Origin: Escherichia coli
Lineage (GTDB): Bacteria; Pseudomonadota; Gammaproteobacteria; Enterobacterales; Enterobacteriaceae
NCBI RefSeq assembly: GCF_030384885.1
Contig: NZ_CP128613.1
Strand: one strand, 5' to 3'
DNA length: 64,000 nucleotides
Position numbers: made by a program
Shown here: positions 50,201 through 53,200 of the stretch, piece after piece
Numbering within the stretch: position 1 is the stretch's first letter
Layout: the number at the start of each line of letters is the position of its first letter

Positions 50201-53200
50201 GCCAGGTCACCGAGGCCAGAATTAAAAAGATTAGCGTCAGCCTGACTCGCAGACTAAGACGTTGGGTAAATTTCATTTCTCACCTAATGTGTAGCCAATA
50301 CCATGCACGGTACGAATAAAATCACTACCGAGTTTGCGTCGCAGATGATGCACATGCACTTCAACGGCATTACTGGTGACCTCTTCGTCCCAGGTATACA
50401 GTTTCTCTTCAATCAGTTTGCGCGGCAGTACCCGACCAGCGTTACGCATCAGTAATTCCAGCAGGGCAAATTCTTTTGGTTTCAGCGTTAAGGGTTCGCC
50501 AGCCAGCGTGGCGATACGTTTGCCGGGGTCGAGCATGACGTTGCCGTGGCGCAGCTCGTTGCTGGCCTGGCCGTTGGTTCGGCGCATCAGAGCTTCCAGC
50601 CTGGCGGCGACTTCTATCAACGCAAAAGGTTTACACAGATAATCGTCAGCTCCCAGACGCAGCCCTTCTACACGTTCCGCCAGCGCATCGCGCGCAGTCA
50701 GGATTAATACCGGCTCACGCTGACCTTTTTCTCGCCATTCGCGCAAAATATCGCGACCATCCATGCCCGGTAAGGTTAAATCCAGGATCACCGCATCATA
50801 AGGTGCGCTATATAGCGCCTCTTTTCCCTGACGACCTTGTGTAAACCAGTCGACGCTAAAACCCATTTTACTAAGGCCCGTTTTGATGCCGTCGCCAATC
50901 AGCATGTCATCTTCTATCAGTAAAATTCGCATTTTTTCATCCCTGCGATAACCATATTTGCTGCCAGTAAACCGTGTTGTAACGCGCTCTGTACAGCACT
51001 AAATTTTATTTTTTTCCCTTAAGAAGTTGTTAAGGACTATCTTGTTAAATGCTCGAAAACAGACATTAAAGGGAGTAATAAACATGAAAAAATTCGCAGC
51101 AGTAATCGCAGTAATGGCCCTGTGCAGTGCACCGGTGATGGCAGCAGAGCAGGGCGGTTTTTCTGGTCCATCGGCAACACAAAGTCAGGCCGGAGGATTC
51201 CAGGGGCCGAATGGCAGCGTAACGACCGTAGAAAGCGCGAAATCCCTGCGTGATGACACTTGGGTCACCCTGCGCGGCAATATCGTTGAACGTATCTCTG
51301 ACGATCTCTACGTGTTCAAAGATGCCAGCGGTACTATCAATGTTGATATCGACCACAAACGCTGGAACGGCGTGACGGTGACCCCGAAAGATACCGTTGA
51401 GATTCAGGGTGAAGTCGATAAAGACTGGAACTCTGTTGAAATTGACGTCAAACAGATCCGCAAAGTAAATCCGTAATTGTTAGCGCTCCCGGGACACGTT
51501 CCCGGGAATAATTTCGCAGGGAGGCAAAATGAAAGACCTGACACTGGATGTAAATATTATCGATTTCCCATCAATCCCTGTGGCGATGTTGCCACATCGC
51601 TGTAGCCCTGAATTGCTCAACTACAGCGTGGCGAAATTTATCATGTGGCGTAAAGAAACGGGGCTTTCTCCTGTTAACCAAAGCCAGACTTTTGGTGTCG
51701 CCTGGGACGACCCTGCCACCACCGTACCGGAAGCGTTTCGCTTTGATATCTGCGGCAGCGTTAACGAACCGATTCCCGATAATCGTTATGGCGTGAGTAA
51801 TGGTGAACTTACCGGTGGACGTTATGCCGTGGCCCGCCACGTTGGCGAGCTGGACGATATTTCACATACGGTATGGGGCATCATTCGCCACTGGCTGCCT
51901 GCAAGCGGCGAGAAAATGCGTAAAGCACCGATTCTGTTTCACTACACCAATCTTGCCGAAGGGGTAACAGAGCAGCGACTGGAAACGGATGTTTATGTGC
52001 CGTTGGCGTGATGAAGAATCTTTACCGGAGTGTGAGCCAAATCACTCGCGATAAGTTTGAGCGAACAATGCCACAGGCGTATTGTTGTTGGGCTTATAAT
52101 TTCTCCGGTAAGGAATACCATGTATACGCGAAATTTATTATGGCTGGTCAGCCTGGTAAGTGCGGCTCCTCTCTACGCTGCTGACGTTCCCGCCAACACA
52201 CCGCTCGCCCCGCAACAAGTCTTTCGTTACAACAATCATAGCGACCCAGGTACGCTCGACCCGCAAAAGGTGGAGGAGAATACTGCCGCGCAGATTGTGC
52301 TGGATCTGTTTGAAGGTCTGGTATGGATGGACGGTGAAGGCCAGGTGCAGCCCGCTCAGGCTGAACGCTGGGAGATACTGGACGGCGGCAAGCGCTATAT
52401 TTTTCATCTGCGTAGCGGTTTGCAGTGGTCAGACGGTCAGCCTCTGACGGCAGAGGATTTTGTCCTCGGCTGGCAGCGCGCGGTTGACCCGAAAATGGCA
52501 AGCCCTTTTGCTGGCTATCTGGCACAGGCGCACATTAACAATGCCGCGGCTATTGTTGCGGGTAAAGCAGATGTTACATCGCTGGGTGTCAAAGCGATGG
52601 ATGATCGTACTATTGAAGTTACGCTTGAGCAGCCGGTTCCTTGGTTCACGACGATGCTCGCCTGGCCGACGCTGTTCCCGGTTCCCCATCATGTAATCGC
52701 GAAATATGGCGATAGCTGGAGTAAGCCTGCGCATATGGTTTACAACGGTGCCTTTGTGCTTGATAAATGGGTAGTTAACGAAAAGATTACTGCACGCAAA
52801 AATCCAAAGTACCGCGATGCGCAACATACGGTATTGCAACAGGTTGAGTATCTGGCGCTGGATAATTCGGTCACCGGCTATAACCGCTATCGCGCGGGAG
52901 AGGTCGATCTCACCTGGGTTCCGGCGCAGCAAATTCCTGCCATTGAAAAATCACTGCCTGGCGAGCTACGAATTATCCCGCGTCTGAACAGCGAATATTA
53001 CAACTTTAACCTTGAGAAACCGCCATTTAACGATGTGCGGGTGCGTCGGGCGCTATATCTTACGGTTGATCGACAGCTTATTGCGCAAAAGGTACTGGGG
53101 TTGAGAACGCCCGCAACCACGCTGACGCCGCCAGAGGTAAAAGGCTTTAGCGCGACGACGTTCGATGAACTGCAAAAGCCAATGAGTGAGCGTGTCGCGA

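Follow-up and report, generated by a model that had tools for sequence, protein, structure and literature searches.

The mqsRA (ygiU-ygiT) toxin-antitoxin locus of Escherichia coli K-12 lies between ygiV and ygiS, where 204 bp separate ygiV from mqsR, mqsA follows mqsR, and 132 bp precede ygiS, with a terminator after mqsA (PMC5120126). Several roles have been proposed for mqsRA in K-12, including biofilm formation, the general stress response, bile-salt tolerance through ygiS, and control of ghoST. Whether mqsRA knockouts exert polar effects on ygiS has been a matter of debate (PMC6918082).

According to a review (PMC7167474), which cites Fiedoruk et al. (2015, Microbiology 161:158) for an uneven distribution among phylogroups, none of the type II toxin-antitoxin systems is conserved across four reference strains, which represent phylogroups A, B1, E, and B2. 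The same review and PMC6918082 both cite Ramisetty and Santhosh (2016, FEMS Microbiol Lett 363:fnv238) for horizontal transfer of K-12 chromosomal systems. No MqsRA homologue was found in the AIEC strain NRG857c (PMC7232551), and mqsRA was detected in 42 of 88 urinary isolates in a PCR survey (PMC11059956). As far as can be judged from these citations, it is already known, and published in outline, that the mqsRA-less state is common and that type II toxin-antitoxin systems, mqsRA included, are unevenly distributed. The locus described here represents one more strain without such a system at a conserved site. Our contribution consists of the precise breakpoints, a census of 5,426 complete genomes, and the polarity given by outgroups, with the overlap with the 2015 and 2016 studies being assessed from the way they are cited.

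The ygiV-ygiS interval of the window lacks mqsRA

The window, a 64-kb stretch (64,000 nucleotides) of E. coli contig NZ_CP128613.1, carries the gene order qseC (−), qseB (−), ygiW (+), ygiV (+), ygiS (+), and parC (+), which is the neighborhood of mqsRA in K-12 (qseCB, ygiW, ygiV, ygiS, and parC). The ygiV gene (51529 to 52011, plus strand) is intact by open reading frame (ORF) call and by the annotation of NZ_CP027579.1. It codes for a GyrI-like/AraC-family regulator of 160 amino acids (aa), is equal in length to its K-12 counterpart, and ends with a TGA stop codon at 52009 to 52011. The ygiS gene (52120 to 53727, plus strand), also intact, starts with an ATG at 52120 and codes for an ABC-transporter substrate-binding protein of 535 aa. 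Between the two genes lies an intergenic gap of 108 bp (52012 to 52119), which holds no credible ORF, including none of the mqsR type, and whose flanks are collinear with K-12, where the order is ygiV, mqsR, mqsA, and ygiS. The initial annotation had placed the end of ygiV at 52011 and the start of ygiS at 52120 and had stated that mqsR-mqsA occupies this interval in K-12. These coordinates proved exact by the ORF calls and by the RefSeq annotation of NZ_CP027579.1, an identical record whose gene calls and spacing match those of the window, and the gene pair was seen at that place in the K-12 locus.

Three segments of the window (51400 to 52700, 51000 to 54000, and 1 to 25000) are each 100% identical to NZ_CP027579.1, the chromosome of E. 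coli strain 2013C-4282, and the coordinates are collinear, with window position 1 corresponding to position 4276853 of that record. It is the only complete genome with at least 99% identity over the first 25 kb of the window; the next closest complete genomes are 98.9% identical, and the nearest of these is EC42405. In a published study (PMC10100065), strain 2013C-4282 is reported as stx1 positive and assigned to Escherichia cryptic clade I, and the clade I strain set of that study also includes EC42405.

The absence of mqsRA from the strain, likewise stated in the initial annotation, was borne out both in the window and on the identical chromosome. When MqsR and MqsA of K-12 were compared with the 64-kb window by tblastn, the best E value was 1.6 for each protein, and neither an MqsR-family toxin gene (PF15723, about 98 aa) nor an adjacent MqsA-family antitoxin gene (PF15731, with a zinc finger and a helix-turn-helix, about 131 aa) was found there. 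The blastn search of the window with the K-12 cassette gave a best E value of 0.12, which is at chance level, and hence revealed no promoter with the MqsA-binding palindrome (ACCT-N-AGGT). For the whole chromosome, a query consisting of window positions 51000 to 54000 plus the reverse-complemented cassette was employed in the sensitive blastn mode, in which the cassette was reversed so that, in carrier genomes, it would not be merged with the locus. The top-ranking record was NZ_CP027579.1, which matched with 100% identity at a single place and showed no other cassette-like DNA down to roughly 65 to 70% identity.

Five base pairs stand in place of the K-12 cassette

The window aligns to K-12 through position 52013, two bases past the ygiV stop codon (2114 in the coordinates of the K-12 locus, L001), and the alignment resumes at 52019 (L001 3042). 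As defined by these junction alignments, the five bases AAGAA (52014 to 52018) take the place of a 927-bp mqsRA cassette in K-12 (L001 2115 to 3041), whereas the flanks are 99 to 100% identical up to the junction. The K-12 block consists of approximately 200 bp of upstream sequence, mqsR (98 aa), and mqsA (131 aa), followed by a hairpin with a T run. Two ACCT-N-AGGT palindromes lie in its promoter region (L001 about 2245 to 2290), such that the unit present in K-12 and replaced by 5 bp in the window comprises a promoter with two palindromes, both genes, and a terminator. With a G+C content of 41.1%, the cassette lies below both the window (50.8%) and the genes ygiV and ygiS (52%).

The initial annotation had suggested that an alignment with K-12 might uncover deletion scars. 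None was found: direct repeats are absent from 51950 to 52180, the junction bears neither a target-site duplication nor microhomology, no remnants of the genes are left there, and both ygiV and ygiS are of full length, so a deletion scar was rejected as a candidate for this site. Nor was any recombinase gene, repeat, or target-site duplication seen with the cassette itself.

The empty site is ancestral in Escherichia

The polarity of the difference was determined with outgroups. In a scan of one genome per species, ygiV was present in five Escherichia species representatives beyond E. coli proper, namely, E. albertii, E. whittamii, Escherichia sp. MOD1-EC7003, sp. E1V33, and a separate species representative titled "E. 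coli SCPM-O-B-8794." MqsR and MqsA were absent downstream of ygiV in all five. An intact ygiS follows ygiV after about 110 bp in three of them, and in the other two ygiS has decayed. The junction TGA-(A/G-rich 5-6 nt)-TCTTT(A/T)(C/G)CGGAGTGTGA is kept in four of the five, in which the sequence after the A/G-rich stretch is TCTTTACCGGAGTGTGAGCC or a near variant; in E1V33, the junction has been eroded through the decay of ygiS. Within E. coli, the same empty junction, with GGGAA, was found in ST131, O157:H7, FCI23, and 13TMH22, and the AAGAA of the window, which also occurs in strain N96, is a two-base variant of GGGAA.

Since outgroups without mqsRA keep the same junction, the empty site is ancestral, and K-12 acquired its arrangement through an insertion that took the place of 5 bp. 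By the same token, the gap is the state that preceded the insertion and not the product of a loss; the outgroups thus fix the difference as a gain by some E. coli, not as a loss in others. The form of the locus agrees with a site that was never occupied, as collinearity with the occupied allele extends on either side to a sharp junction at which 5 bp differ, outgroup species carry that junction, and the insert is of foreign composition (41% versus 51% G+C) and is found in a single genomic context. We are confident that mqsRA never occupied the 108-bp gap, which represents the ancestral intergenic region between ygiV and ygiS, and that the cassette was inserted in a sublineage including K-12.

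The course of events was probably as follows. A 927-bp AT-rich block with an MqsA-operator promoter, both genes, and a terminator entered a single sublineage within E. coli sensu stricto, to which K-12 belongs, at a point 2 bp beyond the stop codon of ygiV, where it replaced GGGAA. The window, from strain 2013C-4282 of cryptic clade I, lies outside that sublineage and has retained the original arrangement. As a consequence, neither the MqsR RNase nor the MqsA repressor is made in the strain, and ygiS stands 108 bp behind ygiV without an intervening mqsA terminator; the cassette may differ from the empty site in its effect, if any, on ygiS transcription.

A secondary loss, in which the lineage of the window once had mqsRA and lost it by clean deletion or by recombination with an empty allele, was also considered. 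Toxin-antitoxin loci do decay and get lost, and IS1 interrupts mqsR in some carriers. Moreover, positions 52019 to 52250 (232 bp, comprising gap sequence and the first 131 nt of ygiS) match K-12 at 100% identity, unlike the whole 1,301-bp locus query, for which the identity is about 98%. The local identity might stem from constraint on the leader or from an allele exchange in the past, and homologous recombination could, in principle, exchange an occupied allele for an empty one without leaving a trace. However, a deletion would have needed to restore exactly a 5-mer of the ancestral type, no remnant of the cassette is present in the window, and the same junction is shared by all of the E. coli empty-site strains compared as well as by four representatives of other Escherichia species. 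In addition, the strain belongs to clade I and is placed outside E. coli sensu stricto. We consider a secondary loss very unlikely on these grounds and retain the ancestral empty site as the explanation of the gap.

Three alleles are common among complete E. coli genomes

To define carriers, a coverage of at least 80% of the K-12 query (the cassette with short flanks) was required. By this measure, the cassette is carried by 2,284 of 5,426 complete E. coli genomes, all of which have it in the ygiV-ygiS context. Coverage of window positions 51400 to 52700 reaches at least 80% in 4,013 genomes, a set that holds the carriers as well as genomes with the arrangement of the window; as 2,284 of these are carriers, about 1,729 genomes have the window's arrangement. 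A third allele, with a 236-bp filler and without mqsRA and most of ygiS, was found in 1,357 of the 5,426 genomes, where the filler almost always occurs as a single copy. In the evenly sampled matches, carriers are 99.6 to 100% identical to K-12 over the cassette and its flanks, and empty-site alleles are 96 to 98% identical to the window.

These counts support the view, expressed in the initial annotation, that mqsRA is variably present, with about 42% of complete E. coli genomes having the genes and about 58% lacking them. Physiological roles proposed in K-12 therefore cannot be general for the species. The genes belong to the accessory genome, and their absence from a given strain matters little beyond correct annotation. 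With its exact breakpoints, the empty site nevertheless offers a clean natural "deletion" allele that can be compared with engineered mqsRA knockouts.

The third allele, as seen in 13TMH22 and in O26:H11 strain 11368, reads ygiV, 236-bp filler, and parC and is mqsRA-less like the window. Its GGGAA junction is of the same ancestral type, and it shares the 108-bp region with the window up to nucleotide 22 of ygiS. Beyond that point the two differ, since unrelated DNA of 236 bp takes the place of ygiS nucleotides 23 to 1566 in the third allele, whereas ygiS is intact in the window. The filler, located at L002:5743-5978 in 13TMH22, gave no match in Rfam, and its only more distant relative (93% identity) lies in another genome under a gene annotated as "group II intron maturase-specific domain." The filler may be an intron remnant.

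Origin and mobility of the cassette

The homogeneity of the carriers fits one recent origin of the cassette, and their sequence similarity together with the single genomic context suggests that the insertion occurred once. A search for a donor yielded none, the nearest named non-Escherichia MqsA proteins (Brenneria and Pluralibacter) being only about 70% identical. MqsA variants at 91 to 92% and 78% identity were considered as candidates for separate insertions and rejected, as they lie at the same locus in assemblies with split ygiV, ygiS, or parC; variants in the range of 78 to 92% are most likely due to sequencing errors.

MqsRA-family pairs with 66 to 76% nucleotide identity occur on plasmids of Rahnella, Rouxiella, Pectobacterium, Yersinia, Pseudomonas, Burkholderia, and others, indicating that the family is mobile. 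This raises the question of relocation, that is, of a functional MqsRA-family module residing at another chromosomal site or on a plasmid of the strain studied here. The DNA search reached down to only about 65 to 70% identity, and a very divergent or plasmid-borne pair could exist beyond that range. Yet the query of locus plus cassette matched one place on NZ_CP027579.1 in the sensitive blastn mode, and the cassette had no match among phage records. Further, the extra places of the cassette number 2,308 against 2,284 carriers (5,425 genomes), so that at most about 24 genomes would have a noncanonical copy, and only one of the extra places is on a plasmid among 20,395 records. Such a relocation is thus extremely improbable, and we hold to the reading that mqsRA never entered this lineage.

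Matches in the plasmid collection deserve a comment. The one record with a gene table that carries the cassette is NZ_MG591698.1 (353 kb), filed as a plasmid, and plasmid carriage was rejected upon inspection, as the record is a chromosomal fragment with qseBC, ygiWV, mqsRA, ygiS, and parC. The other full-length match in the plasmid collection, NZ_CP141089.1 (4.9 Mb), is also filed as a plasmid and looks chromosomal. Chromosome-like records of this kind can yield false "plasmid-borne" calls.

A predicted hairpin fills most of the gap

The gap sequence beyond the junction is predicted, from an inverted repeat, an RNA fold, and its list of pairs, to form an imperfect hairpin of 96 nt (52019 to 52114, plus strand). 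The outer stem of 12 bp pairs 52019 to 52030 with 52103 to 52114, and the next 8 bp pair 52031 to 52038 with 52091 to 52098. The fold has an energy of −38 kcal/mol and a z score of −3.85, and 1 of 200 shuffled sequences folded as well. The hairpin starts at 52019, exactly where the K-12 cassette ends, such that the cassette abuts its 5′ foot. Its sequence is conserved across the genus, with compensatory changes in 0 of the 38 predicted pairs; two of the substitutions keep a wobble pair, and several break pairs. A dispersed repeat or MITE was tried as an identity for the 96-nt palindrome and rejected, as it occurs at a median of one place per genome and a maximum of two.

Two further elements overlap the 3′ part of the hairpin. 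TATAAT (52095 to 52100, plus strand) is a −10-like hexamer that lacks a convincing −35 and could be a putative promoter element of ygiS; a putative promoter upstream of ygiS in K-12 has been described with reference to RegulonDB (PMC5120126). AAGGA (52110 to 52114, plus strand), a Shine-Dalgarno-like sequence for ygiS, lies 5 nt before the ATG and inside the 3′ arm of the hairpin. A promoter scan of the gap identified no full sigma-70 site, one terminator-like site was present in the gap, which is no more than expected by chance (1.0), and Rfam gave no match at an E value of ≤1 in 50800 to 54000.

It is conceivable, if unlikely, that the hairpin is a functional leader that would hide the ribosome-binding site of ygiS on transcripts reading through from ygiW-ygiV and that its 5′ foot was a preferred entry point for mqsRA. 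In that case, the terminator imported with the cassette would have uncoupled ygiS from the transcription of ygiV.

Variation in ygiS and mqsR at the locus

Apart from the third allele, ygiS is disrupted in several other genomes. Strain N96 has an internal deletion in ygiS (L006:4114-4450) that differs from that of the third allele, and two outgroup Escherichia species retain only fragments of the gene (L008:4553-4922 and L010:3713-4140). The gene has thus decayed independently several times; it is repeatedly lost and seems dispensable. The cassette itself is also subject to disruption, since IS1 is annotated at the mqsRA locus in some carriers, such as H31 (NZ_CP093317.1) and H44 (NZ_CM146015.1). 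In NZ_CP093317.1, the element splits mqsR in two, so that the toxin gene has been inactivated in place.
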